Source: a virus (Duplodnaviria; Caudoviricetes). Taken from it: a stretch of DNA of 64,000 nt. Positions 1,776 through 20,088 of the stretch are shown here, one piece after another. The notes under the pieces are model-generated. The model made no database searches. It saw nothing but the letters and a program-made list of their open reading frames with translations, and was not told where the DNA came from. Both the position numbers and the translations under genes were made by a program. Location of the stretch: the IMG/VR virus record IMGVR_UViG_2595698524_000001, positions 128,001 to 192,000 of that record. The stretch is one strand, 5' to 3'. Each line of letters begins with the position of its first letter. The first letter of the stretch is position 1.

Positions 1776-2318
1776 TTACACGACAGCTGACCCCACTACT
1801 CCTTTAAAGCCGTCGAGCTCACCGTCGGTTGTGCTGAGGTCGGTTTTAACGATCTCCTGCGTAACCATATACGTTGCCAGTACACCCGGAAGGTATTTGA
1901 TGTTGCCATCTTTGACGCTGACAGTGATAACCTTCACACCGTCTTCACCGTCAGTGCGGTCGATAGTCAGCTCGCTCAGCGCAAACGCATCTTGCGTTCT
2001 ATCGGCGGCTATGACTTCGGCGTTAACGAATGCCAATACCTCTTCGTCGGTGTCCCAGTCTGCCAGGTCATCCGTTACTGGTTTATCGACAACGAAAGTG
2101 GGGGCCAGACGGGTGTAGTGCAGTTCTAGCGCACCGGTGAAGTGGACACTTTCTGCTTTCGCGGTGATGGTCAGTTTGCTGTTACGGCCAGCACTGCCAC
2201 CTTCCAGAGTTGCAACTGCACCAAAGTCAACATCAGCAACAGTCAATGCCTGCGCCAGAGAAGAGTTTTTAGTGTTAAACAGTGCAACCAACTGCTCTTT
2301 AAAAGATTTAATTGCCAT
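1776..2318 (-). CDS. Hypothetical protein, probably virion-associated
   Basis: 180-aa acidic ORF with GAGGG RBS, located in the structural region. Confidence 0.6.
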   Translation of the reverse strand: MAIKSFKEQLVALFNTKNSSLAQALTVADVDFGAVATLEGGSAGRNSKLTITAKAESVHFTGALELHYTRLAPTFVVDKPVTDDLADWDTDEEVLAFVNAEVIAADRTQDAFALSELTIDRTDGEDGVKVITVSVKDGNIKYLPGVLATYMVTQEIVKTDLSTTDGELDGFKGVVGSAVV

Positions 2319-2377
2319 GATGCAAATCCCTCAGTTAACTGGTGGGTTGACGTACCTCGTCATAAGAAATTAAAGAA

Positions 2378-2403
2378 CCGCTATCCCCGTAAAGAGATAG
2401 CGG
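2378..2403 (-). terminator. Putative intrinsic terminator
   Basis: CCGCTATC...GATAGCGG stem followed by TTCTTT on the minus strand, after the peptidase gene. Confidence 0.5.
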
Positions 2404-2408
2404 CGCGA

Positions 2409-2933
2409 CTACAGGTGCTGAACCAATTTATTCCACTCAATCGGCTTCTGCTTAATCACCGTAACCACCCCACGGGTGGGCGACCACACAGTTAAGTCCG
2501 GCTGATTACGCACATCGAAATGGAACCAACTGATGTCGGTTTCAAGGAAGTGAATGAACGGGAACTCATTCGGGTTTTGTTGGATATACGCACGAACAGC
2601 TTGCGGGGTATAGTGCTGGAAGGTTAAGTCCATCGCACCGCCGTATTTGTGCATGCTGTCAGAGCTCGCGTAAAGCTCCAGGGCGCGTTCACGGTAATTG
2701 CCGCCCTTCGGTTGCTCTTGATTGATAAAGAACTGTAGCGTGCGTAAGGAGCGCTGTGTCATGCCTTTAGAAGGCGAGTTCACAATAATCGGTCCGAACT
2801 TGTTACGTAATTGCTGTAACGTAACCATTACCAGTGGGTTGATAATGTACGCAGCGTTAGCACCACGACGTTTAATGACATCGGGCGGCATCAGCTCTTC
2901 GAGTTTAAACTGGTTGGGGTTTGGCTGAAACAT
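2409..2933 (-). CDS. Peptidase M15-type (Hedgehog/DD-peptidase fold) Zn peptidase, putative peptidoglycan hydrolase
   Basis: SMHKYGGAMDL (SxHxxGxAxD) and WFHFDVR Zn-ligand motifs. Start moved to ATG 2933 (CAGGAG RBS). Confidence 0.75.
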   Translation of the reverse strand: MFQPNPNQFKLEELMPPDVIKRRGANAAYIINPLVMVTLQQLRNKFGPIIVNSPSKGMTQRSLRTLQFFINQEQPKGGNYRERALELYASSDSMHKYGGAMDLTFQHYTPQAVRAYIQQNPNEFPFIHFLETDISWFHFDVRNQPDLTVWSPTRGVVTVIKQKPIEWNKLVQHL

Positions 2934-3597
2934 TCGTCTCTCCTGCGACTGGAATCGGGTACGTGAGGAACGCACGTTTAATGTTTAGGTAATGCACGTG
3001 AGCTTGCTGGTTGGTACGCACCATGGTCATATCTTGCGCGGGGATACCAACTGTTGGGAACTCACGAACAAACTCGTAATTGGCGTTCATGTTAAACGTG
3101 TACGCATTCGGCTTAAAGTAAATACATCCTTTGTTGTCATCAATAAACGACGTCAACCCAAAATGCTTTACTGCCAAATAAAAGGACTGTCGCGTAATCC
3201 AGTTCACGCCTAGTGCTTTCATGGCATACAAGAACATCCGGTCAGCAAAGTTCTTGTCAATCATGGCGTTCAATTTACCCGCCCCGTCGTTGTGGTAGTA
3301 ACCAATGATAGGGATTTTCTGATACAGCAAATCGTGCAACGCGGCAGCCGGGCCGTAATCACCTTCCGGTTTAAACAGAAACTGTAGCTGTGTGGGAATA
3401 GACGCTAAATCGGTTACAAACCCTTTCGGGGCAACCAAATATAAAGGCTTGTCGGCGCTCAGACCGGTTTCCTTTAAAATGACCTCGAGACGTGTCGGGT
3501 CGTCCTCATACAGACCAGCCAATGTAAAACCGAAGGTGTAGTCTTTCGTTAAGATAAACCACTGCTTATCCAAACGACAATACTCAAACTTGTCCAT
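2905..3597 (-). CDS. DUF1353-family protein
   Basis: APKGFVTDLASIP, AAALHDLLY and ADRMFLYAM are typical of the family. Start MDKFEY has an AAGGA RBS. Confidence 0.75.
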   Translation of the reverse strand: MDKFEYCRLDKQWFILTKDYTFGFTLAGLYEDDPTRLEVILKETGLSADKPLYLVAPKGFVTDLASIPTQLQFLFKPEGDYGPAAALHDLLYQKIPIIGYYHNDGAGKLNAMIDKNFADRMFLYAMKALGVNWITRQSFYLAVKHFGLTSFIDDNKGCIYFKPNAYTFNMNANYEFVREFPTVGIPAQDMTMVRTNQQAHVHYLNIKRAFLTYPIPVAGETNVSAKPQPV

Positions 3598-3645
3598 TAT
3601 GGTTATCCTTCGATTATTAAGGGGGGTCATAAAAAAAGAACAAAG

Positions 3646-3665
3646 GTGTGCCCCGAAGGGCACAC
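3646..3665 (-). terminator. Intrinsic terminator closing the radical SAM/peptide cluster
   Basis: GTGTGCCC-cgaa-GGGCACAC (UUCG loop on the minus strand) followed by a T-rich tract on the minus strand. Confidence 0.8.
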
Positions 3666-3668
3666 ACT

Positions 3669-4325
3669 TTACAGCTCAGTTACAAACGTTGCTTTTAAAC
3701 CTTTGAGAGCGGTGTAGTCTCCGTTCTCAGCAGCAATCCGCGCAGTCTGTTTAAAGTCCGTCAGCTTTTCATGCAATGCGTTGGTGCGTGCAACGATAGC
3801 TTCATTCAACGCTTTCAATTCATCCAGCGTGAAATCGAACTTCGCGTTGTTAGCATCCACCCAGTAACCCGGGCTTTGTTCAGTGCTCAGGTAACGCTGA
3901 ATAGCTGCCAGCGCCTTTTCGTCAGTTTGGTAATTGCGCCCTTTAAACTCAAGAGGAGCAACCACCGCTTCACTGTACGCCTGATTTACCCAGCTGATTA
4001 ACTCAGTCAGTAAGCCATAGCACTTGCCGCGCGTAGAAGAACGCTCTGCCTTATGCTCGGCCAAATCAACGCCCAGCACTTCAGAGACGAACTTGTGCGC
4101 CGCTTTAATGGTGAACTTCACTTCTAACGGAGAAAGACCCTGAGTTGTCAAACCTGCGCTTAACTCTTCATCAGTCATCCCGTCCAGCAGGCGGTAGTGT
4201 GCCAGGCGCGCGAGCGTAGGGTTCCACGTCGCATCACTCAGTTCACCATCGACAAACTGTCCATGACGGTCCACCAGTTTACCGCTGTTATAGAAGCGGT
4301 CCTTTATTTCGCTATTACTAAGCAT
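3669..4325 (-). CDS. DUF4376-like protein (tail-fibre-associated family)
   Basis: C-terminal FKGRNYQTDEKA...YWVDANN...FTLDELKALNEAI...H pattern. Confidence 0.65.
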   Translation of the reverse strand: MLSNSEIKDRFYNSGKLVDRHGQFVDGELSDATWNPTLARLAHYRLLDGMTDEELSAGLTTQGLSPLEVKFTIKAAHKFVSEVLGVDLAEHKAERSSTRGKCYGLLTELISWVNQAYSEAVVAPLEFKGRNYQTDEKALAAIQRYLSTEQSPGYWVDANNAKFDFTLDELKALNEAIVARTNALHEKLTDFKQTARIAAENGDYTALKGLKATFVTEL

Positions 4326-4867
4326 TCAGTTTTCCCCACGATGCCAATGTCTCTCAGCAGACCGTAGTCGAGGAATTGGTAGTCCCGGGCCAAGTCATAC
4401 TGCCAGACAAGATTGTTAACCTTTTTGTCGTCTGGGGTTTCAGTGGCCTCATTGAAGACACCAACCAAATCCCAGCACTCGAAATAGTTACACTGTTCCT
4501 GAGCATGACGAACAATCTTAATTTTGTTGTTCGGGAACGACTGCGCCAGAGCCACCAGAGAACCGATGCCCTTACCGTGTTTGGTACGATAAAGGATGGT
4601 CATCTTGGTCGCAGGCGTATCGAGGATACGCTGCTCCAGACCGGTGTTGCGCAGCTCAGCGTTAGCCAGTGAGTTATGGCCTTCTTCCACGCAGTCCAGC
4701 TCAACCATCACGTTCAGAGAATGACGGATCACCAGCTTCTTCACTGTTTCCGTGTAGTTCTCTGCTTTACACAGCAAAGACACGTCAAACAGTTTGTGCT
4801 TAGACAGGAACGCGTCAAGCAGCGTGGTATCAAGCCTCGTAAAATTGTGAATTAGCAATGACTTCAT
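4304..4867 (-). CDS. Hypothetical protein in radical SAM cluster
   Basis: 187-aa ORF overlapping both neighbours; CAGGA RBS. Confidence 0.65.
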   Translation of the reverse strand: MKSLLIHNFTRLDTTLLDAFLSKHKLFDVSLLCKAENYTETVKKLVIRHSLNVMVELDCVEEGHNSLANAELRNTGLEQRILDTPATKMTILYRTKHGKGIGSLVALAQSFPNNKIKIVRHAQEQCNYFECWDLVGVFNEATETPDDKKVNNLVWQYDLARDYQFLDYGLLRDIGIVGKTECLVIAK

Positions 4868-6188
4868 TGGTCTTTTCCTGAGATTTGTGTGCGTGAGGTT
4901 GTTCGTGCGTTACTGGTTCTGCAATTGCAGGCTTGGCCAGCTTAGGCAGTTTGTTTTCCTGCGAGGCGCGAACACGGCAGTCATAGCAGTTACAGGTCAG
5001 CTCTTTGAACTGATTACCGTAAGAACCAAAACGACGTTCCCACCACTGTGCAGTTAACAGTTTAGCCGTAGTCCAACCGCACTGACGACGTTCGCCGTGA
5101 TACTGCTTACGTGCTTCTTCTTCACCGTCGCCATTTTCATACGCGGCAGCTACGCAAGATGCACAGATGTGTTTCGCTGGGCAGCCCATACAAGCGTCTG
5201 GGTAAGACTTCCACTGAGTCTTAACTTCTTCCAGCAGTTTGCCGCCGTCGGTGTTAACGATTTCACGACCAACAAGCTTAGCAATTGCCTGACGGGTGGT
5301 TACCGTAGACATGAAGCGGTTACAGCCGTAGATGTTACGGTCGAAGCCGAGACAGGTCATGTGAACGGTCGTACCGCAGTGTGGGCGCAGACGGTCTGGG
5401 TTATAACGTACCTGATCGTCGTGCAACAGTTTTTCACGCCAGTCTGGGTTCCACAGGTCATCGACGTTCATACCGTTTGGAGTGATGTGCCCCATTTCAG
5501 CAGTCGGGTCTAAGTGCAGCCCTTTACCAATCCAGTATTCCAACACTTCAATCATCTGGTTAGAAATACCCAGCGCCATGTCACGAGGAATGATATCTTC
5601 AAATACCATGTTCCCGTAGATGGTACCACCGCCCGATTGGTCGATTAACGACTTCATGGATGCAGCGTAATGCTTGAGCGTGTCGTGGGTAAAGGTCGCT
5701 TTGATACCGAGGTCGTTAATCTTCATCGACTTCAGATAGTGATACCCTTCCAGCGCTTTCTCGTACGAGCCTTTGCGCGAGGTAGTGAAGATACGGTGTT
5801 TGTCATGCGTCTCCGGCAGACCATCAATCGATACGCCGATAGAGAGACGCTTATACCAGCGCTCGATAATAGAACGGTTCAGCGGCTTATCAAACAGCGT
5901 GCCGTTGGTGGAGATAGAGAACATGTACGGGCGGTTATCCCGCGCCGCCAGCTCTTCTGCAGTTTCGAACGCTGCAATCAGCAGCTTCGGCTGCAGGAAC
6001 GGCTCACCACCGATGATATCGATGATAGCACCATCCACACCCGGCTTACCTTTATCGCGGTCAAAGCAGGCATGGATAAAGTCAACCACGTCTTCAACGC
6101 GGTTGTTACGCGGGAACTTGCGCTCGTAGCAGTAATCGCAATCGAGGTTGCAAGACAGGTTGGTAACTATTTGGTACGTTACGTCCAT
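4830..6188 (-). CDS. Radical SAM/SPASM-domain peptide maturase
   Basis: CNLDCDYC (CxxxCxxC), GGEP, STNG, SIDG motifs. SPASM cysteines HCG...IYGCNRF...CMGCPAKHICASC...RQC. Confidence 0.9.
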   Translation of the reverse strand: MDVTYQIVTNLSCNLDCDYCYERKFPRNNRVEDVVDFIHACFDRDKGKPGVDGAIIDIIGGEPFLQPKLLIAAFETAEELAARDNRPYMFSISTNGTLFDKPLNRSIIERWYKRLSIGVSIDGLPETHDKHRIFTTSRKGSYEKALEGYHYLKSMKINDLGIKATFTHDTLKHYAASMKSLIDQSGGGTIYGNMVFEDIIPRDMALGISNQMIEVLEYWIGKGLHLDPTAEMGHITPNGMNVDDLWNPDWREKLLHDDQVRYNPDRLRPHCGTTVHMTCLGFDRNIYGCNRFMSTVTTRQAIAKLVGREIVNTDGGKLLEEVKTQWKSYPDACMGCPAKHICASCVAAAYENGDGEEEARKQYHGERRQCGWTTAKLLTAQWWERRFGSYGNQFKELTCNCYDCRVRASQENKLPKLAKPAIAEPVTHEQPHAHKSQEKTNEVIANSQFYEA

Positions 6189-6198
6189 AATGGCCGCC

Positions 6199-7074
6199 TT
6201 ATGCTTGTGGCAAATTCAGGTAGTTATGCAGATACTTGTAAGCATCCACGCCGATGATAGAGGCTATTTTATTACAGCCTGAGTCCACTAACCATTCCGT
6301 GTTCTCACGCAGCCCAATATCCCCATTCGGTTCAACCATCTTCAGCTGACCACATGCGTTACAGTTCATGTTATCGAAGAACTTCTCTAAACGCAGTACC
6401 GTCGAGTAACCGTTCGCCGCGTTCATCTCAAACATCTGGGCTTCGAGCCGTTTCCATCCGTAGATGAAGTTCAGCACGTGGTCCTGATTGAGAGGTTTCG
6501 GCATTAACTTGTCGAACGTCAGCGATAACGCCGCCAAGTTAAGATGATGCAGAGAACTGTGCAGTTGAAGGATGTCTTCGTACCAGCGAGGTTTACTCAC
6601 CATCTCACGCGTCAATACGCCCCACACAGTAACCTTTTCCAGCTCATTGATTACTTCAAAAGCCTCTTGAGCACCTTCGTCAATGAATGCACGCAGGCTA
6701 CGCTCACCACCTTCGTACGCATCGATAGACACGACGATATGGTCAAACGTTTTCAAGAACTCAAGTTGCGACAACTTGAGTTTACGACCGTTGGTGAATA
6801 GCAGGTGTTTTGCGGAAGGAGCGCCACGCCGTGCTTCTTCAACGAAGTCAACCAACTTCGAATAGGAGAGCAGCGGTTCGCCACCAGTCCACAGGAATTC
6901 CTCTACCAGAGGATTTTCTTTTATAATGTCCACCATTGCCTCTTTATGTTTTGTTTTAGAGACATCGCCCTTAGCCATGTGAGCTGCCCCTCCACAGAAG
7001 GAGCAGTTTAAGTTACACTTAGCCGTTATTGCAACGTCAATCATCGTTGCGGATGATTTAGGGGTATCGTGCAT
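6199..7074 (-). CDS. Second radical SAM protein with short Twitch-like Cys tail
   Basis: CNLNCSFC, TGGEPLL, FTNG, SIDA motifs. C-terminal CNACG...EPNGDI...GC. Confidence 0.85.
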   Translation of the reverse strand: MHDTPKSSATMIDVAITAKCNLNCSFCGGAAHMAKGDVSKTKHKEAMVDIIKENPLVEEFLWTGGEPLLSYSKLVDFVEEARRGAPSAKHLLFTNGRKLKLSQLEFLKTFDHIVVSIDAYEGGERSLRAFIDEGAQEAFEVINELEKVTVWGVLTREMVSKPRWYEDILQLHSSLHHLNLAALSLTFDKLMPKPLNQDHVLNFIYGWKRLEAQMFEMNAANGYSTVLRLEKFFDNMNCNACGQLKMVEPNGDIGLRENTEWLVDSGCNKIASIIGVDAYKYLHNYLNLPQA

Positions 7075-7999
7075 CCGGATTTTTTCCCCATTGCTTGCTC
7101 ATAAACGAGAAGAGCGGGTCATCTTTACGAACATCTTCGCCGGGAACAATGAGTTTCGGGTCATTATACGCCTGCAGGATGGCGTCTAAGATTTTATTCC
7201 GGCTATTGATTCCGTTAAGTTCTTTCAAACTTACTTCACGGCGGATGAACGAGTCCATTACATGCTGCTCTTCGTCCGAAAGGAGACCGGCCTCGTTGAC
7301 TTTACCCACCAAGAAGGTCATTACTCGGTGCAAGTCAGCTGTGGTATTCGGTTGCTCCCCGTACTCGCTTTGAATCAGGTAGTTCGTCCACGGTTTGCGC
7401 AGTCGCTTGGTAATCTCGTGTGCATCCGTAATCGCTTCCCATCTCATACTACGATGGTTCCACGTAATTTTATACGAATACGCCATGAGGTCAGCCAGCG
7501 TATCGATGCCGAGTTCTTCGTAACCATCGACCGCATAGTAGCGTTCGGTATTGAAGTAATCGTCATCTGGCACTTCATCGCAGTCAACAACGGTGTAGTA
7601 GAACGGGAAGGCTGATGGGTATTCCCAGTTCCAGCCGCGTTGAATCATCGGCTTCATGTTGTTTTCTTTAAACGATGCAAACAGCAGCTCCAGCGGTGGA
7701 GCGTAGTTAAGTACCGCATCGGTAAAGTAGTATTTGTCGTTCACTAATTTACCGACGTAGTCTGTCGTCGCACCGGTACACTTGATGATTTTCACATTCA
7801 GTGTGTCAGAGATGTTGAACTCTTCCAGTACCGTTGACTTATACAGAATGTCGCGAGGACGCAGACGTGGGAACTCAACCGGGTTCATTGCCAGCAAACG
7901 CAGACGGTCATTGACGTGGTCATTAACCGCGTCAGGTAGCCCGATGTGAATCGGGTAGTTGAATGTAGTTCGGAATGCGTAATGCGCATTACTCTTCAT
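7058..7999 (-). CDS. Hypothetical protein in radical SAM/peptide cluster
   Basis: 313-aa ORF with AAGGAG RBS, lying between the peptide genes and the rSAM genes. Confidence 0.75.
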   Translation of the reverse strand: MKSNAHYAFRTTFNYPIHIGLPDAVNDHVNDRLRLLAMNPVEFPRLRPRDILYKSTVLEEFNISDTLNVKIIKCTGATTDYVGKLVNDKYYFTDAVLNYAPPLELLFASFKENNMKPMIQRGWNWEYPSAFPFYYTVVDCDEVPDDDYFNTERYYAVDGYEELGIDTLADLMAYSYKITWNHRSMRWEAITDAHEITKRLRKPWTNYLIQSEYGEQPNTTADLHRVMTFLVGKVNEAGLLSDEEQHVMDSFIRREVSLKELNGINSRNKILDAILQAYNDPKLIVPGEDVRKDDPLFSFMSKQWGKNPDARYP

Positions 8000-8010
8000 G
8001 AAAGAACTCC

Positions 8011-8220
8011 TTACGAAGGCCAGGTCACAGCTTTCGCGCCACCTGAAGACGTCCAGCTACAACTACCATTACAACGATAGCTGCCTGCTGCAATATTGTT
8101 TAAACGATTGGAGTTATTAACGGTACCGCGGGTAGCAATGTAGTTAATCGCACTAGCGGTGGTGATATAACCCTCAATCCTCGCGAGTTGCTGTCCAACC
8201 TCGTTTAATGAAACAGCCAT
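8011..8220 (-). CDS. Short precursor-like peptide (MAVSLN leader, CNGSCSW core)
   Basis: GGGAGG RBS. Paralog of the two upstream Cys-rich peptides with only 2 Cys. Confidence 0.8.
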   Translation of the reverse strand: MAVSLNEVGQQLARIEGYITTASAINYIATRGTVNNSNRLNNIAAGSYRCNGSCSWTSSGGAKAVTWPS

Positions 8221-8232
8221 GTGACCTCCCTA

Positions 8233-8634
8233 CTACGGTCCAGAACAGCCGGAACAACCCCCAGAACATGACCCGGAACAGTTACCAGAGCATCTGCCTG
8301 AACACGTACCAGTACACGTACCAGAACACGTACCAGAACACGTGCCTGTGCAACCACCGGAACAACCACCCGCGCAACCACCTGAACAGCTCGACGAACA
8401 GCTAGAGCCACAGGTTGCACTACAGGTTCCGGTACAGCCGCCAGAACAGCCTGCGGAGCAAGTCCAGCTACACGTACCTCCGCAGTGGTAATAGTTCGCG
8501 TCATGACCTGCTAAGCGGTCTACGTTATTGGTAGTCTTGCCCGCAATGTACGATTGGACACCGGCTTCGGTTTTCAGAGCAGCGGCTTCAATGTTGTCCA
8601 GTTGGCCTTTTACAGCGTTTAATGAGACTGCCAT
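8233..8634 (-). CDS. Cys-rich CxxX-repeat precursor-like peptide (133 aa, 21 Cys)
   Basis: Likely start is MAVSLN at 8634 (GAGGGG RBS). 50-aa leader followed by repeats such as CSGG, CTGT, CSGT. Confidence 0.85.
   Translation of the reverse strand: MAVSLNAVKGQLDNIEAAALKTEAGVQSYIAGKTTNNVDRLAGHDANYYHCGGTCSWTCSAGCSGGCTGTCSATCGSSCSSSCSGGCAGGCSGGCTGTCSGTCSGTCTGTCSGRCSGNCSGSCSGGCSGCSGP
8302..8343. repeat. 12-bp tandem repeat (ACACGTACCAGW) encoding C(S/T)GT units
   Basis: About three and a half near-identical copies are directly visible. Confidence 0.7.
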
Positions 8635-8645
8635 GGTAATCCCCT

Positions 8646-9038
8646 CTATTGTGGCCCCGAACATCCGCCTGAGCAACTTCCTGAGCAGTTACCTGAACAC
8701 GCCCCACCACAACTCCTGCCACAAGCACCAGAACATGATGAAGAACACGCGCCGCCGCACGTACCCGTACAGCTACCTGAGCAACCTCCCGAGCAAGAAC
8801 TAGTACACGTGCCAGAACATGACCCGGAGCAGTTACCGGAGCAGCTGGAACAACCGTGGGAACAACCTGAAGAACAAGACCAACTACAACTACCGTTGCA
8901 GCGGATTTCTCCGGGGGACATCCCGCCTAAATTATTTGCGTTATACGCTTTTGTGGCCACCTGTCCATCAACCGAAGCGCCAGTTGCAATAGACAGTCTG
9001 GCCATACGCGCATTAACGTCATTGAGTGAAACGGCCAT
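8646..9038 (-). CDS. Cys-rich CxxX-repeat precursor-like peptide (130 aa, 21 Cys)
   Basis: AAGGA RBS. 46-aa leader followed by CNGS-CSWS-CSSG... repeats. Confidence 0.85.
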   Translation of the reverse strand: MAVSLNDVNARMARLSIATGASVDGQVATKAYNANNLGGMSPGEIRCNGSCSWSCSSGCSHGCSSCSGNCSGSCSGTCTSSCSGGCSGSCTGTCGGACSSSCSGACGRSCGGACSGNCSGSCSGGCSGPQ

Positions 9039-9093
9039 ATGCTTCCTTTAACGGGCGAACTTGACATAAAGTATCGCCCTGACGTTATAAGAG

Positions 9094-10293
9094 TTACTTG
9101 GTGCCGGCAGCAGACTGAACGTCGCCGCGGGTAGTCAAGTTGGCGTTGACGTGTACGTTGGCTTGTACGACACCACCCGTGTTCTTGTTCAGATACTGGT
9201 CGTGCGGGTTCGCCGCCGATTTGTGGGCTGCGAGGTCAGCGTTGGTTTTCGCCAATGCCTGTTCCAAGGCCGCGATGCGATTTTCGAGACCTTGGTTCGC
9301 TGTGCCCATATCCGCAATCTGCTGCTTCAGGTTATTGGTTTCCTGATTAGCGGCTGCGAGTCCAGCACGCAGGTCATTGAGCTGCTGAGTCAGCAGACCG
9401 ACTTGCGTTTCCAGAATGAGAATCTCATCCATCAGTTCCGCAATCTGTAACTGCGTTTTCTGATAGTTCTGGTCAACCGTGTTGAGCTGGGTATTCCATG
9501 TGCCGATAGAACTGACCAGCGCTGCGATTTTCTGCGCCAAGTCGGTATCGGTCGCATTGAGCGTACCGATATCTTGCAACACGGAGTTGATGCTGCTTTG
9601 CACGTTCTGAATCAACGTACGGACTTCTGACGTGGAGTACACGTCAAGTTGGCCACGCGTCACTTTGTGAACGTTGCCTTCCGCATTACGGTGCTCATCT
9701 AACGCCGCCAGCATCTCTTGACGATACGCTTTGAGCATGTTCTGAATCTGCACCATTTCCGCAGACGCGCCCAAACGAATCGCTTCGTTGAGTTTCGCCA
9801 GCAGGGTAACGATGTATTCAAAACCAAAGAAGTCGCCCACGTCACGGAACGCAGGCGCACCTGCAAACTCATCCGGCACGTTACGGAGTTCATAGAAGTC
9901 GATAGTTGGGTCATCGAGTTCCAGTGATTCAATACACTGGACGATGTTATCGACGTTCGCTGCGTACGGACCACCGACAATGTGGGCGCTGGCGGTGATG
10001 TCGGACGGTACAGCCGAGCGAGTAACAACAATAGCAGTTGCCACTTCGCGGCCACCGGTCATTTTAGTCAATGACGGATGGAGGAGAATTACTTCGTAGT
10101 CGGTACCGCGAACGAGTGGTTTATTCGGCGCGTTCACCGGAGCTAATCGAAGCGTATCAACAAAGAAAGGACCTGTTGGGAATGCAAACGCCCGGTTAAT
10201 CGTTCCTGTGCCGAGTTTAATCGGGTGAGAAACGTTGTTACCGAGGATGGTTCCGAACAGGTCCAACGGGTACTGCATTACTGCCTTACTCAT
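9094..10293 (-). CDS. Tail fibre/baseplate-associated coiled-coil protein
   Basis: N-terminal YPLDLFG domain shared with the larger fibre paralogs, GNVHKVT motif, long heptad region, C-terminal NPHDQYL...beta-repeat. Confidence 0.7.
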   Translation of the reverse strand: MSKAVMQYPLDLFGTILGNNVSHPIKLGTGTINRAFAFPTGPFFVDTLRLAPVNAPNKPLVRGTDYEVILLHPSLTKMTGGREVATAIVVTRSAVPSDITASAHIVGGPYAANVDNIVQCIESLELDDPTIDFYELRNVPDEFAGAPAFRDVGDFFGFEYIVTLLAKLNEAIRLGASAEMVQIQNMLKAYRQEMLAALDEHRNAEGNVHKVTRGQLDVYSTSEVRTLIQNVQSSINSVLQDIGTLNATDTDLAQKIAALVSSIGTWNTQLNTVDQNYQKTQLQIAELMDEILILETQVGLLTQQLNDLRAGLAAANQETNNLKQQIADMGTANQGLENRIAALEQALAKTNADLAAHKSAANPHDQYLNKNTGGVVQANVHVNANLTTRGDVQSAAGTK

Positions 10294-10320
10294 CGGAAAA
10301 CTCCTTGTGGTGAGTAAAGA

Positions 10321-10342
10321 GTGGGGAGCCGAAACTCCCCAC
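10321..10342 (-). terminator. Putative intrinsic terminator or stem-loop
   Basis: GTGGGGAG-ccgaaa-CTCCCCAC directly after the 1900-aa gene. Confidence 0.6.
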
Positions 10343-10347
10343 TTTGT

Positions 10348-13300
10348 TTACGCGCTCAGGGTGGAATCATGAATCATAACATCAAGGACAACCGCGGTAG
10401 TCGCATCGTAGTAGATGTCGATATACCGGCCTCCTGCGAAGCTACGTTCCTCCGTCCAGAACATCACTGGGGCTTTGGTAATGGCTGCAGACTGACGCAG
10501 GGCCAGCATGTAGTCTTTACCCGTAGGCACGGTCAACGTGTACAGGCCGATAGCAGCACTGCCCGGAATAGAAGCAGGGGAAGCCGGGTTGGGTAACTTA
10601 ATCGCACCTAATGACGTACTTGAGGTAGCGAGTTTCGTTGTCCCATCCTGCACTAATTCAAACGCCACATACGTCGGTGAATTACCTGGATTTTCTCTTA
10701 CGACAAGCGCCAACGAGTTGGCTTGATTCAGCAACGCCCCGGTCAGTGTAACCGTTTGCGTAGCTGATGCGTTGTACGTAGTAGTCCCCTGCAACACACC
10801 GTTCAGGTATACACTACAACCGTCGTCGCTATTCACATTCAACATTAAAGAGTTGCTTGTTGGTGTGAAAGTTGTTTTTACAGCGAACACCTCGCCCGCT
10901 GCCAACAACTGAGCATATGGGCGAATCGCTGGCGATGCTAACGGACTGCTATACGCGTTGGTCGTCTGCATTGCAGGTGGCCACAGCTTTTCAGCATTGT
11001 TAGCTAGCAACATCCACGACGCGGTTATCGCAGGCAGGCTCACACGAGTGATGTTATCGAAGTTACCGGCGAGCTGGTTCGCTGTTTCCAGCGCCGCAGC
11101 AGTGCCGTAAGTCTTCGACAAATCCGCCCCCGGACGGGTGATGTTCCAGAATCGTGCCGCGTTTTGAGATGTAGCCCCGTAGCCAAAACGACAAGTGCGG
11201 GCAAATGTCGGGGCTGCAGTGGCCAAGTCAATCTCAACGTATTTGTACGTTGCAGAGTTACGCACCTGGCTCATCGACAACGTTTTCTTCGCCGCCACGA
11301 TTTGTCGGATGTTCGTGTCACGATCACCGGTTGTTGGCAATTGTGCATGTTCAACCGCAATATACAGCATGTTACCGCGCCGTTCAGCGTAGACATGCGC
11401 ATACCACTTATTCCACCCCAGTAAATCGGTGGTCGAAGTGTCTAAGGTGGCGATCGCCCGAGAAGATGACTGTCGGTAGTTTTCCTTAACCTGTATCCGA
11501 GACTGTAAATCAAGGTGCCCCTCGATTGAGTTACCGATAGCTAAGCAAAGCGTTTGTTCGCGCCCTACCGACGAATCTTCCTTCTTCAACGCAGCCAGCA
11601 CAATCGCGATGGCATCATTATCAGTGTCGTTAGAAGTGATAACCGTGTTAAACGTGTAATCACCAACCAGTTCATCCGAAATAAACCCAACGAACGTCAC
11701 TGTGTTCAACGTACATTCAACCACATCATCCGCGTCGATATATTTCCATGCTACGAGTTCAGACTCGTTTGCAGGCTGGGCCGACGTCGAGTTGTTGTGA
11801 CTGAAACGGTACCAGCTGTTGTAGATATCCTGGAACGACGGGAATGAGAACGTGTCGATGGTACCCATGTTCTCCATGTTCGAGTAGATAGACTCGGTCA
11901 AGGTCCCGCCTGCCAGATATCCGTGCGCGTACGGGTTGTCCGCGTGCGCCAACAGAGAACCAACTCGACCCAAACGTTTCACACGGTTGATGTTGACTTC
12001 AACGATAGCGTTAGTCGACGTCACCACGTACCCGATATAGAGGCGCGTAGCAGTGTCGCTAAGCAACGTTTTGGAAACGCTGTACTCTGCCTTACCTTGT
12101 GCGTTTAACTGCACGTAGAAGTACAGTGTGGCGTTCTGGTAGTCGCTTGGGAACAACGCTTTGAAGTCAAATTGCGAGGCTGGCGTATTGTGCTCTTCCA
12201 TGTTCGCAAAGAACGGAATGTCCTGCGTAATGTAAAGAATCATCCCCTCGGCCAGCTGTGGTCCGAACAGGATCACGTTACGTGCACTGCCAGTGTTGTA
12301 ATTACGACTGTTGTTGCTAAATGCTTGACCGCCGTAATACATCCCACCAGACAAGAACGTACCAACCAGAATCTCGTTCGTTTCAGGCAGATGGACAACG
12401 TCGCTTTCGCCATAGGACGGGTTAACCATTTCTCGGTTAAACGTCCAGTTTGCCATGTTCGCATCGCATGTCAACGTGAAGGTCATGTGACCCCCGCCAC
12501 CGACAGTCGCACAATGACATTGCGCATGAGGACGGATAATCCATCCGTCACTGCGTTTAATTAAACGCAGCTGCCAGTAATCCCCTGCATTGCTGATACC
12601 CGTCCACGCGAAATCGATACGGTCTTCGTTACCAATGTGCACCGCGTTGCTGTAATCCAGCGCCAGTACGTTGTTAACGAAGGTCATTGGGATGCGGAAA
12701 TAGTAGACGTACGCATACGTGACACCGTCCGCTTCTTTCTGACCAAACATCGCCGTAGCGATACACATGTTTGTACCGCCCAAATCAAACAGGTTTAACC
12801 AGCTTGTTTTGAAGATACTCGCCGCTTGTCCCCACTTCGCCACACGGGTCGTCAGCATCGACTGGAAATCATTCCACATCGCAGCATTAACAGTCACTGT
12901 GTCGTTGTGCAGCACTGCAGAACCGTTAATGTTTTTGTAATTACTGCTCCCAGCGGAGTTAAAAGCGGCCCCGTTGAGGTAATTACTGTTGCCGTTGAAG
13001 ATGTAGGCACAGCGGGTTAACACGTTGTACGTTGACTCGTTAAACGCGGTACGGTCATTCGAAGGACCCCAACCACCATAGCCCGGGAAGTTGTAAGAGC
13101 CTGCGGTGTCGTAAGCTATCTGGGCGCAATCGCTGGTACCCAGACGGCGCATCAGCACCTTTTTAACCGTGTTACCCAGCTGCACTAAACCACGCATGCG
13201 ATGTTGGTACACTGAGCCGTACGCCCCGTTTACTGCCATCTGGACACCCATCCGCCCGGTCAGCGGATTATCCCAACGCAGCGCATCGTACAACGACTTG

Positions 13301-16050: not shown

Positions 16051-16054
16051 TTAC

Positions 16055-19000
16055 TTATTCCTTTTCGAGCGCCACCTGTTGAATAGCAAACTCCCAGTTG
16101 CGCTGGGTGAGGTTCCACGGGTTTTGCATGGCAATAGTCGGGATATCACCGTATTCGGTAACGAACCAATCGGTATTGTTCGTCACAAACGTTTTGGTGC
16201 TATTGTCGTTGTACGTGATGGTAAACCGCGCTTTGACAAACGGTGTCGGCGCATTCGCAGTCGGACGACAGATAATGCTGAACACCCCTTTAGTGTCGGC
16301 GTTAGCTACAATATTGGCATTTGCCGTAAGTGTACCTGCGTTCCCCACCAAATCCGCGGCGAATACGTTCGCACCGTCAATAAGAGCCCCAATCGAACCT
16401 TGACCGGAAATCGCGACCGCTACTGACTTCGCATTCGTCAACAGGTCAGGTTTGTATGCAACCATTACAAACCCGCGACGTGAGATATAACCCAGACTGT
16501 AGGAGGACAACGACGTATCTCCAACATTGAGCATCTCATAAGCGACTTGCGGTACACGACCCTGCGTTAACAGACGCGAGGACTTCGGCCACATCGCATG
16601 CGGGACGGCATACGTGGCGCACTCATGTACAATGCCGTTAGCCTGCTCAGTAGTGATGACCTGTGTCGCCAACTCCATCGCCGCAAAGTCATTTGCACCG
16701 TAGTGCGCAGCCTTACCACGATGTAGCCCGTTCTGTTTTGCAGCATAGGCCGCTAACTCCGAACCACGGATATAGGACTGAATCAGCCCCGTATGGTAGT
16801 TCAAACGGTTCAGGTACTGTGGTGCGATAGAATGGTCGAAGAGAGACCCCATCAGACGGTAACCGGTTTTCGCTGAAGATGAATAGCCCACGAATGGACC
16901 TTCAAAGAAGCGGGACAGGTCTTGCTCGAACACCAGTGAGCAGAAACGATGTACCTCAGTACGCGTCGCATCACCCACTGCACCAATCAAGATGTTCAGT
17001 CGCTTCTCTGCCGGAATATAGCGATAACGAATCGCCAGCACCCGCGGCTTCTTCACACTAACCCCGTTGACGTGAGGTGGGAAGTTAAAGCTTGCAGCCA
17101 CATCGGTCTGTTCCTCGCGGACAAACGAAATCAAGTTCGTCCGTGGGATATCGGTAAACGGTAACGCAACCGGTTGCGGTGTGACTTCATTAACGAACGC
17201 AATCGAGGCTTGTCCGTCTGCGGGAACATCAATCGCGTACAGAGACAACACTTCATGACGACCGTTAATCGCAGTAGCTACGAACTCCAACACGCCTGAC
17301 TCGTTCGCCATGAATGAACCATCGTAGGTGACACGATTATTCGCCTGAGGGTTTGCCATGTTCTTCCAGCGATACGGAGACTGACCATCAACCCCAACCC
17401 AAACCCGTAACGGGGCAGCGGCGGCCGCGCCTTCTGCAACAACCAGCGTTCCCTGTGTACGTAATGTCATCCCTGCTGCGTCCGAGAACATGGCCACATC
17501 TGGCGCAGACGTCACTGACTTATCAGCAACACCATACGCTTCTGTGTTCTCCAGTCCAATCACTTTAACGTTAGCCGGGCTGTACTCTGGGCTGTTGATG
17601 TCCACGGTGTCGTGAGCATCCGGGTCTTCCATGTGGGTCTGCAGCTCTTTGAACTGGCCAAAGTCGATAATCTGACCGAACTGGATTGGGCCTCCCGAAG
17701 TGATAACTCCAGCATCGTTAGTATCAACGTGGCCTAAGTAAATCATCTCGGTATTAACTGCCCCTCCCGGTAGTGGAGAGCCTAACGCTTGGAAGCGTCC
17801 GCGCAGCACGTTACCGTAGATAAAGAAGCGGTTATTCTGCGCAGGTAGGTATGCACCAATTTCACCTACTGGGGTATTCGCGCTAGAGTTATAGATTAAC
17901 GAACCGCCATCCTGCACGTCGAATGCAACTGACGCGGGTTTGCTCGTGTCTTCACACAACGCACTGACCGCAATGACGTGGGTACCCGGTTCTAACCAGA
18001 ATTCTACTTCTGGGTTGTCCTGAGCATCCGCCATTAAGTTCTCGTCAATCCAGATAGAGACCTTCCCACTGGAACGAGCACGTACCTTAATCGCTTCGTC
18101 CGCGAACTTCATACGGACTTTGGCAGCAACAATCAGACCCGCCGTGCCCACTTTACCTACAGCAGTAGAGACTGCCTTTGCCTGAGGTAACGGGTTAGTC
18201 GGTTGAGTGGTATGTACAAAGCCGAGTTTCCAGCTTTTCTCTACGCCACAACCGATAGCATACCACAGGTTGGCAGGGACTTGGGTCAAATCGACCGCAC
18301 CGTCAAAAGTCCCTTCTGCTGAGTCCAGTGCGCGGGCTACGAAATAACGATACGTGGTAGTCGGGTTCAGTGTCCAACCGCTGACGTTAAACGTAGTCGC
18401 TTCTACCGTGGTGAATTCCAGCGTATCGCGGAACATTACCCCGAAGAAACGTTTGTTCAACTCAAGCAGTCGGTCGTTCAGTCCTTTCAACACTGCAGGG
18501 GCAACAGCCTGACCATCTTTCACCTCACTGTACGTGGACGCAATCTGAACAGTACCATACGCTTGACGCGTGGCCTGTCCAATTCGCAGCATTGGCCAGT
18601 CGTGTTTGTGGTTCTTTGCCACCAACGCATCAGTACGGGTTTTCTGCGGCGTAGAGAGCGGCTTGTTCAAGTCAGCCGTGTTGTCGACGGAGGCCAGATC
18701 TAAATCTGACTTATCGAGAACAATCTCTGTGCCAGACATCGGGTTGTTGTTAATGAGCACGTTCTTAGGAACCATGTCATTAAAGCCGTCATTATACGGC
18801 TTACCCGAATCCGGCGTCGCGGCCACGCCGTCAGCAACAGCGCCTGTACCAGAAACCAGTTTAACTTTACCCGGCACGGTTTTGGTGGCTTTCGGGATAT
18901 TCAACGCGCCTTCTAACGGAGAAGATGGCGTACCCTTGCCTTTGAACGTGATGTTCGTTGACTGGGCATTAAGCTGGACGTTTTCCGGGTCGCCGTTAAC

Positions 19001-20077: not shown

Positions 20078-20088
20078 TGCTGAATCCT

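Follow-up and report, generated by a model that had tools for sequence, protein, structure and literature searches.

At positions 3669–9038 of the window (the whole 64-kb stretch of giant-phage DNA analysed), the ORF listing gives eight minus-strand open reading frames, with a spacing between neighbours of −38 to +12 bases. The first-pass annotation had described them as eight tightly packed genes lying directly downstream of four tail-fibre genes, and both the coordinates and the packing are reproduced here. The genes and features of the region are the following:

2905–3597, minus strand: DUF1353 protein, downstream of the hairpin (PF07087, 68.9 bits; phrog_1158 'tail assembly chaperone', 213 bits)
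3646–3665, minus strand: terminator-like hairpin, 8-bp stem with 6 G-C pairs and a T-run after it, 3 bases past the stop codon of the DUF4376 gene
3669–4325, minus strand: DUF4376 protein, 218 aa, probable tail-fibre chaperone (PF14301, 45.8 bits, cutoff 25, residues 108–200)
4304–4867, minus strand: p187, 187 aa (phrog_7988, 289 bits)
4830–6188, minus strand: radical SAM/SPASM enzyme, 452 aa, likely maturase of the Cys-repeat proteins (best families PapB and TIGR04115, below cutoff)
6199–7074, minus strand: small radical SAM enzyme, 291 aa, with CX3CX2C, GGEPLL, and a C-terminal CxxC plus one further Cys
7058–7999, minus strand: p313, accessory protein, 313 aa (phrog_8030, 472 bits)
8011–8220, minus strand: pepC, 69-aa short paralogue with the common N-terminal region, entry motif CNGSCSW and no repeat array
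8233–8634, minus strand: pepB, 133-aa paralogue, a 50-residue N-terminal region and then 21 Cys at period 4
8646–9038, minus strand: pepA, 130 aa, a 46-residue N-terminal region and then 21 Cys at period 4 (C-S/T-G-x units)
9094–10293, minus strand: gp167-like virion structural protein, 399 aa, with a long coiled coil, directly upstream of pepA (phrog_2163, 337 bits)
10348–23715, minus strand: three giant genes (1900, 1340 and 1208 aa), homologues of SPN3US gp168, gp169 and gp170

The length of pepB is counted from an ATG (the ORF listing extends the start to a TTG at 8676), and a Shine–Dalgarno sequence lies ahead of each of the three peptide genes. At the other end of the block, the stem and T-run that had been called a terminator are present. 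The region 2300–10500 contains nine terminator-like sites against 8.5 expected from shuffles; because this count shows no excess, the hairpin at 3665–3646 is without statistical support and is only plausible as a terminator. The four genes upstream of the block encode homologues of SPN3US gp167 (47% identity), gp168 (32%), gp169 (30%) and gp170 (32%), in keeping with the tail-fibre assignment made earlier. In SPN3US, gp168–170 were found in the virion and are baseplate/tail-fibre candidates, and gp168 is essential (PMC5694885, PMC10052503). The main text of these two proteomics papers leaves gp161–gp167 unnamed, the full protein lists being placed in supplements, and the searches they describe used the deposited annotation with fixed Cys carbamidomethylation (PMC5694885, PMC10052503). 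Public annotation places the middle peptide in the wrong frame. The published SPN3US proteomics is blind to pepA, pepB and pepC.

The Cys repeat of pepA and pepB is far beyond chance. In both proteins, 19 of the 20 spacings between the 21 Cys are exactly 4, and they alone among the ORFs of the window contain runs of at least four Cys at period 4; in 20 shuffles of the window, the longest Cys run was at most 3–4. At the DNA level, the tandem repeats are weak (period 12, 72–84% matches). Since the differences from phage EarlPhillipIV are concentrated on codon position 3 (positions 1/2/3: pepA 23/14/77, pepB 19/14/71, pepC 10/4/36), these alignments indicate that selection acts on the Cys reading frame. 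Across the SPN3US-like phages compared, pepA has 21 Cys in six of six and pepB has 20–21, and three natural variants of pepA contain no gaps and retain every Cys. Neither Asp nor Glu occurs in the pepA and pepB cores.

Three CxxX-repeat peptides had been proposed, which holds for two of them: pepA and pepB are members of TIGR04114 (31.5 and 33.7 bits; cutoff 20), whereas pepC has no NCBIfam match, falls outside TIGR04114, and carries a single CxxxC (CNGSC) in the window phage. pepC is conserved as an ORF of 68–69 aa in EarlPhillipIV and SPN3US. All three paralogues have the conserved N-terminal region and match phrog_6085 (pepA 121 bits, pepB 130 bits, and pepC 84 bits over profile positions 1–67). 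The term precursor peptide fits less well: a cleaved RiPP-type leader is unsupported, the N-terminal part of pepB having its homologue within a fibre-like protein. Residues 5–108 of pepB, the non-Cys N-terminus included, align with residues 243–334 of a 401-aa fibre-like protein in L011 (38% identity, E 4e-16; L numbers denote loci fetched with the 452-aa enzyme), so that in alignment pepB matches the C-terminal part of that protein along almost its whole length.

Both radical SAM enzymes named in the first-pass annotation are present; the 452-aa enzyme has a SPASM domain, and the conserved Cys in the alignment leave the small enzyme without a full one. The 452-aa enzyme is likely the maturase of the Cys-repeat proteins. 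Its residues C13, C17 and C20 (CX3CX2C) are invariant in 14 sequences, as are C271, C289, C333, C336, C342, C345 and C370 (SPASM-type auxiliary-cluster Cys). The top NCBIfam family is PapB (NF047865; 117.6 bits against a cutoff of 340, model positions 12–319 of 330), followed by TIGR04115 (112.9 bits against 350), and the CrpC-type model TIGR04463 gives 54.2 bits against 525; in NCBIfam, neither radical SAM enzyme reaches a curated family cutoff. The TIGR04114 and TIGR04115 numbers given in the first-pass annotation were right, TIGR04115 being the best or second-best family for the window enzyme and for all ten relatives tested. Five of these relatives are members (521.9, 474, 440, 434 and 386 bits) and five fall below 350 (297, 275, 183, 153 and 144 bits), a continuum between the 522 bits of full members and the 113 of the window enzyme; three of the five full members tested come from viral contigs (L016, L033 and L041). 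With pepA and pepB encoded 2 kb upstream of it and in the same orientation, the window enzyme stands beside a CXXX-repeat target, a feature of TIGR04115. The sole PDB sequence match is 5WGG (CteB; E 1.2e-7), over residues 12–172 and thus the core only. In the tree, the SPN3US-like enzymes and those of L008–L011 form a clade (support 100/99), inside which the SPN3US-like group branches next to L009 (99/95); by this tree, the fibre-fused loci L008–L011 are the nearest relatives of the enzyme outside the SPN3US-like phages. Exporter-linked Firmicutes enzymes form a separate clade (100/100).

The small radical SAM enzyme (Pfam Radical_SAM, 46.1 bits) resembles the 452-aa enzyme in the core only (27% over 123 aa), has a counterpart in L011 (28% identity, E 5e-10), and gives weak matches to MoaA, viperin and QueE-type models. 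p313 has no Pfam, NCBIfam, PDB or Atlas match; its residues 147–272 are homologous to proteins of about 250 aa encoded between the fibre gene and the radical SAM gene in L008–L011 (hhalign probability 96.5%, E 7.4e-10), and in L009 and L011 these p313-like proteins occupy the position of a chaperone. p187, with 23 relatives among 1.84 billion representatives, has no informative Pfam, PDB or Atlas match. The 218-aa DUF4376 protein, which exceeds 25 bits with PF14301 and is encoded within the fibre module, is a probable tail-fibre chaperone. Among the eight module proteins, no transporter or peptidase family and no immunity gene was found with NCBIfam, Pfam and PHROGs, and no RRE family match was found with NCBIfam and Pfam.

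The full eight-gene order is retained in EarlPhillipIV, SPN3US and four viral contigs, and the co-occurrence of peptide and radical SAM genes in related phages, on which the first-pass annotation had made its reading depend, extends well beyond this group. An ORF with at least five consecutive Cys at period 4 accompanies the enzyme in 76 of 80 viral loci and in 11 of the 13 best cellular loci, against 2 of 67 in the control (distant radical SAM enzymes only). At the level of lineages, L012–L083 form 23 clusters at a threshold of at least 60% identity, 20 of which have a Cys-repeat ORF. Where the run comprises at least eight Cys, the ORF is on the strand of the enzyme in all 85 loci and upstream of it in 74. 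These associations suggest that the enzyme and the Cys repeat are paired as enzyme and substrate.

In the related loci, the repeat is found joined to tail-fibre domains. L009 has it at the end of a Phage_tail_fib protein (PF12571, 138.8 bits), and L008 and L010 at the end of proteins with many PHROG tail-fibre matches. The gene order in L009 and L011 is baseplate wedge, fibre with repeat, p313-like protein, radical SAM enzyme and tail sheath. Elsewhere, the repeat follows a GDSL esterase domain (L058) or is directly followed by a Hint self-cleaving domain (L073). An 862-aa tail fibre lies directly upstream in L033, a head protease and a neck protein nearby in L089, and a baseplate wedge and a phrog_2163 protein in L041; proteins matching phrog_2163 adjoin a radical SAM or Cys-repeat gene in both L041 and L019. 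A simple 'split fibre' gains no support from the gp167-like protein, which in pairwise comparison is not significantly similar to the fused L009 fibre and shares only a short motif with the L041 protein (E 0.003). The upstream neighbours in ten further lineages are mixed and count against a fibre role: a tail PHROG is the best match in 3 of 10, a second radical SAM enzyme is found in one, an amidase domain in one, a PHROG of unassigned function in two, and nothing in three.

The best reading of these sequences is a tail-fibre maturation module and not an antibiotic cluster. We give a probability of about 0.55 to a tail-fibre-associated structural protein, not a secreted RiPP, that is cross-linked by the SPASM enzyme, probably via thioethers. 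pepA and pepB would be small structural proteins, each having an N-terminal segment of about 45 residues ahead of a rod-like core made up of 21 C-(S/T)-(G/S)-x units; the N-terminal segment is homologous to the stretch before the repeat in fibre proteins of other phages. The 452-aa enzyme would cleave SAM reductively, take a hydrogen from an acceptor carbon that lies within or beside each four-residue unit, and join the neighbouring Cys sulfur to that carbon, and about 20 repetitions would yield a ladder of small thioether rings. Such links could form in the reducing cytoplasm, where disulfides cannot arise, and the product would be a stiff part of the fibre that withstands reduction and proteases. 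p313, encoded at the usual site of tail-fibre assembly chaperones, may hold or present the substrate, and the small radical SAM enzyme may modify only some of the sites or introduce a second type of modification. Fibre assembly would be aided by the DUF4376 and DUF1353 proteins as chaperones, with the product carried on the baseplate/fibre complex that the gp167–170 homologues form.

The proposed chemistry is argued by analogy, as the best-scoring families and the sole PDB match are thioether formers (PapB, 5WGG/5WHY). The thioether assignment, acceptor and bond type alike, is tentative because the pepA and pepB cores lack the acceptors of PapB. Against the fibre reading stand the scores of the enzyme, far below the TIGR04115 and PapB cutoffs, the absence of a repeat in pepC, and the exporter-linked relatives, which show that the enzyme family can also make secreted peptides. 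In Firmicutes clusters with short peptides, an ABC exporter lies beside the peptides in three of three loci examined, and none was found in the phage loci examined. The earlier argument that the lack of a transporter and peptidase points to a virion product is strengthened by these exporters and by the repeat–fibre fusions in the nearest phage relatives.

The Cys ladder might instead bind metal ions or iron–sulfur clusters along a fibre or rod, with the radical SAM enzymes having a minor, different or no covalent role. Twenty-one regularly spaced thiols among small residues resemble a metal-binding array, and the tip of the phage T4 long tail fibre, which contains a row of iron ions, counts for such an arrangement. 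Metal binding is likewise raised in the CrpA study for the Cys-repeat protein described there (PMC13692751). We regard this as unlikely, since the pairing with a SPASM enzyme across the viral loci (76/80) is hard to explain if the thiols are free and all characterised relatives named by the searches form covalent links from Cys; the two readings are nonetheless compatible, as some Cys could stay free. Less likely still is a true RiPP, in which the cores, once modified, would work as free molecules, either against competing bacteria when lysis releases them or against host defences inside the infected cell. A leader-like N-terminus before a Cys-rich core, the TIGR04114 membership and the classic exporter-linked peptide clusters of the Firmicutes relatives speak for it, but neither a peptidase or transporter nor an immunity gene is found among the eight, the 'leader' has its homologue inside a fibre protein, the module lies within a structural gene block, tail fibres carry the repeat as a fusion in the nearest relatives, and the exporter class is a separate clade.

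The repeat could also be cross-linked and yet serve in assembly alone, as a scaffold or chaperone cap that accompanies the giant fibre proteins transiently and is absent from the finished virion. Its gene lies among chaperone-type genes (DUF4376, DUF1353), the Hint domain right after the repeat in L073 is self-cleaving, and the DUF4376 partners of fibres have been described as chaperone caps that act transiently (PMC10579305). The conserved Cys count fits a ruler-like structural part, and we consider a purely transient role improbable. Finally, the adjacency may be incidental, the radical SAM enzymes acting on nucleotides, cofactors or proteins such as gp168–170 while the Cys-rich proteins remain unmodified. 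Consistent with this, neither enzyme reaches a curated family cutoff, and the small one has its weak MoaA, viperin and QueE-type matches; same-strand co-occurrence across many lineages (control 2/67) and the unbroken range of TIGR04115 scores, from 522 to 113 bits, make it very improbable.

Among known systems, the TIGR04115/TIGR04114 pairs likewise place a radical SAM/SPASM enzyme beside proteins with Cys at every fourth residue, and pepA and pepB pass TIGR04114. The window enzyme differs in its score (112.9 bits vs 350) and in its separate clade with fibre-fused loci, and whereas the name of TIGR04115 suggests a peptide maturase, the targets in the window lie in virion modules. A literature search found no paper describing the function of the TIGR04115/TIGR04114 family; Haft and Basu reportedly introduced such enzyme/Cys-repeat pairs in 2011. 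The freyrasin-type enzyme PapB (NF047865), which acts on repeated Cys motifs and forms thioethers, is the top NCBIfam match, and the window enzyme has no N-terminal extension ahead of its radical SAM motif. Unlike the window system, PapB links Cys to Asp or Glu, absent from the window cores, and its substrates are short peptides. 5WGG/5WHY, a sactipeptide thioether synthase named CteB in the CrpC paper (PMC13692751), is the only solved structure matched by sequence and has a radical SAM core and the SPASM Cys pattern, but its radical SAM motif starts near residue 106 and that of the phage enzyme at residue 13.

In Methanococcus voltae, the SPASM enzyme CrpC puts ranthionine links into a 28.8-kDa Cys-repeat protein (PMC13692751). 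As described there, CrpA resembles the proposed product in being a protein of Cys repeats rather than a short peptide, with its thioether links inside motifs of 4–5 residues. A 47-residue N-terminal region is common to CrpA and CrpB (PMC13692751), just as pepA, pepB and pepC have one in common. CrpC belongs to another enzyme family and has a predicted RRE domain, the repeat is 17 residues long instead of 4, and the system is archaeal and chromosomal with no virion context. Tail-fibre assembly chaperones are encoded just downstream of fibre genes and are needed for fibre maturation (PMC7289586), and gp27 of Alteromonas phage V22 is a DUF4376 protein that acts as an intermolecular tail-fibre chaperone (PMC7289586, PMC10579305). 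In the window, the module ends with a DUF4376 protein, and p313-like proteins are at the chaperone position in L009 and L011. The known chaperones aid folding without covalent chemistry, whereas in the window radical SAM enzymes share their position.

The source record of the window spans 223,989 bases and is estimated to be 99% complete. Among named phages the closest are EarlPhillipIV and Derbicus, Erwinia jumbo phages of the SPN3US-like group (76% nucleotide identity over the region). The features of the locus are as follows.

Upstream of the module: homologues of SPN3US gp167, gp168, gp169 and gp170 (47, 32, 30 and 32% identity)
9038 down to 3669, minus strand: module of eight genes with intergenic distances of -38 to +12 bases
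Order within the module, minus strand: pepA (130 aa), pepB (133 aa), pepC (69 aa), a 313-aa protein (p313), a 291-aa radical SAM (rSAM) protein, a 452-aa rSAM/SPASM protein, a 187-aa protein (p187) and a 218-aa DUF4376 protein
3665-3646, minus strand: hairpin and T-run, 3' of the module
Downstream of this hairpin: DUF1353 protein whose PHROG is annotated as tail assembly chaperone
2377-2404, minus strand: the region's strongest terminator-like hairpin (12-bp stem, T-run), just after a 188-aa ORF at 2409-2975 and stronger than the hairpin that closes the module

In SPN3US, gp168–gp170 are virion proteins and candidates for baseplate or tail-fibre components, and gp168 is essential (PMC5694885; PMC10052503). 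A promoter scan of the locus was uninformative, with four sigma-70-like sites against 7.9 expected.

The Cys-repeat peptides are real genes. pepA and pepB contain 21 Cys each, spaced by exactly four residues in 19 of 20 intervals, and their cores consist almost wholly of Cys, Ser, Gly and Thr in units of C-(S/T)-(G/S)-x. No other ORF of the 64-kb window has a run of at least four Cys at period 4, and 20 shuffles reached a maximum of 3–4. Each of the three peptide genes has its own Shine-Dalgarno sequence, and tandem repeats at the DNA level are weak. Differences from EarlPhillipIV at codon positions 1/2/3 number 23/14/77 in pepA, 19/14/71 in pepB and 10/4/36 in pepC; this concentration on third positions shows that the Cys frame is under purifying selection. 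Across the six phages compared, pepA always has 21 Cys and pepB has 20 or 21, while the remaining core residues vary. Close variants were found in three public runs, where long contigs spanning the peptide region show 9, 16 and 35 substitutions but no gaps; in the 40 of 45 substitution rows that the variant analysis covers, every Cys is retained, pepA has no amino-acid change, and the pepB changes are small-residue swaps plus one H-to-Q in the N-terminal region. pepC has an N-terminal region in common with pepA and pepB and the entry motif CNGSCSW, has no array, and is kept as an ORF of 68–69 aa in EarlPhillipIV and SPN3US. In a 194-base contig from one metagenome run (X7; window 8364-8458), 9 other bases take the place of 93 bases of the pepB repeat; the net change is 84 bases (seven 12-base units) and keeps the reading frame. 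This contig may represent either a natural length variant or a different phage and was left out of the evidence.

The first-pass annotation had named TIGR04114 and TIGR04115 as the NCBIfam models for CXXX-repeat targets and their maturases. These numbers are right, since pepA (31.5 bits) and pepB (33.7 bits) both pass the TIGR04114 cutoff of 20, and TIGR04115 is among the best curated families of the 452-aa enzyme. The radical SAM motif of the enzyme occupies residues 13–20, and another seven Cys follow a SPASM-like pattern; all of these Cys are invariant in 14 sequences down to 24% identity. Its scores lie below cutoff for both PapB (117.6 bits, cutoff 340) and TIGR04115 (112.9 bits, cutoff 350). 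Five full members of TIGR04115, three of them on viral contigs, were scored among the related loci (L092, 522 bits; L041, 474; L090, 440; L016, 434; L033, 386), and lower scores lead down to the window (L012, 297; L084, 275; L008, 183; L011, 153; L009, 144; window, 113). TIGR04115-type enzymes thus form a score continuum. The 291-aa protein has a radical SAM motif and enough C-terminal Cys for at most one auxiliary cluster. Recent duplication as the origin of the two rSAM proteins was rejected, their similarity being confined to the core.

The pairing of enzyme and repeat extends well beyond the jumbo phages. We fetched 80 viral and 80 cellular loci with an alignment of the 452-aa enzyme and its relatives and scanned their six-frame ORFs for Cys runs at spacing 4, with spacing 3 also allowed. 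Lack of co-occurrence of peptide and rSAM genes in related phages had been named beforehand as a refuting outcome; the check was passed, with a run of at least five Cys in 76 of the 80 viral loci. The same holds for 11 of the 13 best cellular loci; of the 67 cellular loci whose match is confined to the radical SAM core, which act as a built-in control, only 2 have such a run. Four viral loci lack one: L076, on a contig that breaks off immediately 5' of the enzyme gene, and L080, L082 and L083, of which two match only in part. When L012–L083 are grouped at 60% enzyme identity, 20 of the 23 clusters have a Cys ORF. Runs of at least eight Cys lie on the same strand as the enzyme in 85 of 85 loci (upstream in 74, downstream in 11), and the longest runs contain 75 Cys. 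This pairing makes it highly likely that the repeat is the substrate of the enzyme.

An N-terminal domain of roughly 110 residues, with a pattern like F..LK..V..E..RR....Y.....Y.F, is common to most of the non-fused phage Cys-repeat proteins in L012–L090; no Pfam match and only a partial overlap with phrog_6085 were found for it. Small genes of about 190 and 100 aa recur in these loci between the Cys-repeat protein and the enzyme (a cluster of 55 ORFs). Two loci of Candidatus Termititenax (L084, 7393-9408; L085, 7656-9656) encode proteins of about 670 aa with Cys runs of up to 63 that adjoin the enzyme; the four L084 neighbours tested and the L090 neighbours tested have no PHROG match. A 246-kb viral contig (L071, 7384-14248) carries two phrog_1802-type rSAM genes (7384-8502 and 9440-11248) and two very large Cys-rich proteins of 557 and 421 aa with less regular spacing.

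At several loci the repeat is part of a fibre or fibre-like protein, adjoins another domain or lies among structural genes.

L009: Cys array as the C-terminal end of a 384-aa protein with an N-terminal match to Pfam Phage_tail_fib (138.8 bits); gene order is baseplate wedge (phrog_6), 206-aa gene, fibre with repeat, p313-like gene, rSAM, two more genes, tail sheath
L008 and L010: Cys array ends proteins with many PHROG tail-fibre matches
L011: Cys array at the end of a 401-aa protein that has collagen-like stretches and whose tail matches are weaker; gene order is fibre with repeat, small rSAM, p313-like gene, rSAM, tail sheath
L058, 8234-9487: C-terminal Cys repeat fused after a GDSL/SGNH esterase domain (PF13472, 92.5 bits)
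L053: Cys repeat after a galactose-binding-like domain that is weak and below cutoff
L073, 4402-5517: Cys repeat with a Hint domain (PF05203, 38.9 bits; PF01079, 29.9 bits) immediately after it
L041: gene order is baseplate wedge, 222-aa gene, phrog_2163 protein, 97-aa gene, rSAM, Cys-repeat protein, with a tail protein farther along
L033: 862-aa tail fibre directly 5' of the Cys-repeat protein
L089: head protease and neck protein upstream

The L058 fusion would fit a receptor-modifying fibre with a Cys-repeat module, and the Hint domain of L073 hints that the protein of that phage is spliced or cleaves itself where the repeat ends. pepB resembles the fused L011 repeat protein beyond its Cys: residues 5–108, including the non-Cys N-terminus, align with residues 243–334 of the L011 protein (38% identity, E 4e-16). 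Direct inspection shows that pepB (NNVDRLAGHDANYY) and L011 (NIDAETLNGQAPDYY) have, ahead of their first Cys, a stretch resembling a motif inside the L008 fibre (LNADKLDGHDSAYF). A maximum-likelihood tree of 40 enzymes joins the SPN3US-like group and L008–L011 in one clade (100/99), with the SPN3US-like group nested beside L009 (99/95). The free-standing peptides of the jumbo phages thus fall inside a clade whose other members bear the repeat on a fibre. This tree comprises the window and 39 of the 160 loci (three of four SPN3US-like loci, L008–L011, 18 of the 23 clusters, ten of L084–L096, and L097, L098, L111 and L122; clusters L054, L063, L080, L082 and L083 are omitted), and its midpoint root serves for drawing only. 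The gp167-like protein directly upstream of pepA was considered as the other part of a split fibre; this idea found no support, as the protein has no significant similarity to the fused L009 fibre and shares only a short motif with the phrog_2163 protein of L041. phrog_2163 is the family to which the gp167-like protein belongs. Among ten upstream neighbours from ten other lineages, a tail PHROG is the best match in three (L019, strong and also matching phrog_2163; L038; L014, weak), and the other seven comprise a second rSAM, an amidase domain, two PHROGs of unknown function and three proteins without a match.

Outside the SPN3US group, phmmer detects only the enzyme and the repeat protein of the module, whereas profile comparison reveals more. 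Residues 147–272 of p313 are homologous to the proteins of about 250 aa encoded between the fibre gene and the enzyme in L008–L011 (profile comparison, probability 96.5%, E 7.4e-10), which places p313-like proteins at the usual position of a tail-fibre assembly chaperone. L011 also encodes a counterpart of the small rSAM (28% identity, E 5e-10). The DUF4376 domain occurs in gp27 of Alteromonas phage V22, whose gene follows the fibre gene and which is described as an intermolecular tail-fibre chaperone of a new type (PMC7289586; PMC10579305). Among 1.84 billion representatives, 23 relatives of p187 were found; Pfam matches in 20 family members were scattered, each in a single member, and none was informative. 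The ESM Atlas holds no usable match for p313 or p187, and a profile search of PDB sequences returned nothing for p313 and a chance-level match for p187 (E 0.12).

A class of Firmicutes loci provides a contrast. In L088, L092, L094 and L096 the targets are peptides of 45–90 aa with 6–16 Cys in register, encoded downstream of the enzyme; an ABC exporter with membrane and ATPase domains adjoins the peptides in all three loci examined (L092, L094 and L096), and an FtsX-type permease is also present in two of these. The enzymes of these short peptides form their own clade (100/100), and none of the window's eight proteins matches a transporter or peptidase family in NCBIfam, Pfam or PHROGs. The Anaerococcus locus L093, initially labelled as lacking a Cys ORF, has an enzyme inside the ABC-exporter clade (99/93 with L094), and its target peptides may be too short for the filter of five Cys or may be encoded beyond the contig ends. 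In the phage branch, the fusions, the enzyme tree, the pepB–L011 alignment and the gene context are best read as pointing to a structural role associated with tail fibres. We propose, at a probability of roughly 45%, that the CXXX-repeat/rSAM system (TIGR04114/04115 and divergent relatives) serves virion maturation in most of its natural occurrences: the enzyme would install a thioether ladder in a rod with Cys at every fourth residue, at the tip of or attached to the tail fibres of myovirus-like phages and prophages, and the exporter-linked bacterial clusters would be a related secreted-peptide branch of the same enzyme family. The range would extend from P2-like prophages to SPN3US-like jumbo phages, and the links would arise in the cytoplasm, whose reducing conditions prevent disulfides.

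The peptides are poorly represented in public records. The EarlPhillipIV RefSeq record has the middle peptide (gp161, 13589-13861 of locus L001) on the right strand but in the wrong frame, and the same is true of the sole gene annotated among the peptides in both SPN3US records (SPN3US_0166 / ACQ60_gp100, 12215-12550 of locus L002); the other two SPN3US peptide ORFs (12634-13026 and 11997-12203) have no annotation. The N-terminal 60 residues of pepB match two proteins among 5.8 billion predicted proteins. The database searched in SPN3US proteomics was derived from the annotated genome (273 sequences), and Cys carbamidomethylation was set as fixed (PMC10052503). The pepA and pepB cores of the window contain one Arg each and no Lys, whereas the N-terminal regions have both residues and should yield tryptic peptides. 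Missing annotation, fixed Cys alkylation and a single Arg would together make a cross-linked core invisible to standard tryptic proteomics. This exposes a blind spot: the peptide genes are absent or misframed in the SPN3US and EarlPhillipIV records, and standard tryptic proteomics with fixed Cys alkylation would miss their product. Because an amber-mutant genetic system exists for SPN3US (PMC5694885), the question of a virion role is directly testable.

The NCBIfam family models and the rSAM annotation are already known, and the SPN3US genome record itself labels the enzyme genes "putative radical SAM superfamily protein 1/2"; what would be new is the proposed role of the enzyme-target family, which is undescribed. 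Our literature search found no paper tying these enzymes or family models to Cys-repeat proteins, tail fibres or virions, and no description of such a post-translational modification of virions. A 2026 jumbo-phage review lacks the terms "radical SAM", "RiPP", "thioether", "cysteine-rich" and "post-translational", and the Lh1B paper mentions neither radical SAM nor cysteine. If true, the proposal would describe the first enzyme-catalysed radical cross-linking of the host-recognition apparatus of a virus particle, and an orphan enzyme-target family, so far a "peptide maturase" in annotation libraries, would gain a concrete, testable role. Reduction-proof covalent links in this apparatus could matter both for how stable the particle is and for efforts to engineer robust receptor-binding proteins.

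The chemistry would be of the thioether type, judging from the relatives of the enzyme, and some or all of the repeat thiols may instead bind metal. The only solved structure matched by the 452-aa enzyme is 5WGG (core only, E 1.2e-7); 5WGG and 5WHY are CteB, a thioether former, and CrpC installs ranthionine links within 4–5-residue motifs of a 28.8-kDa Cys-repeat protein (PMC13692751). PapB joins Cys to Asp or Glu, whereas the cores of the window contain neither residue, so the acceptor must differ from that of PapB.
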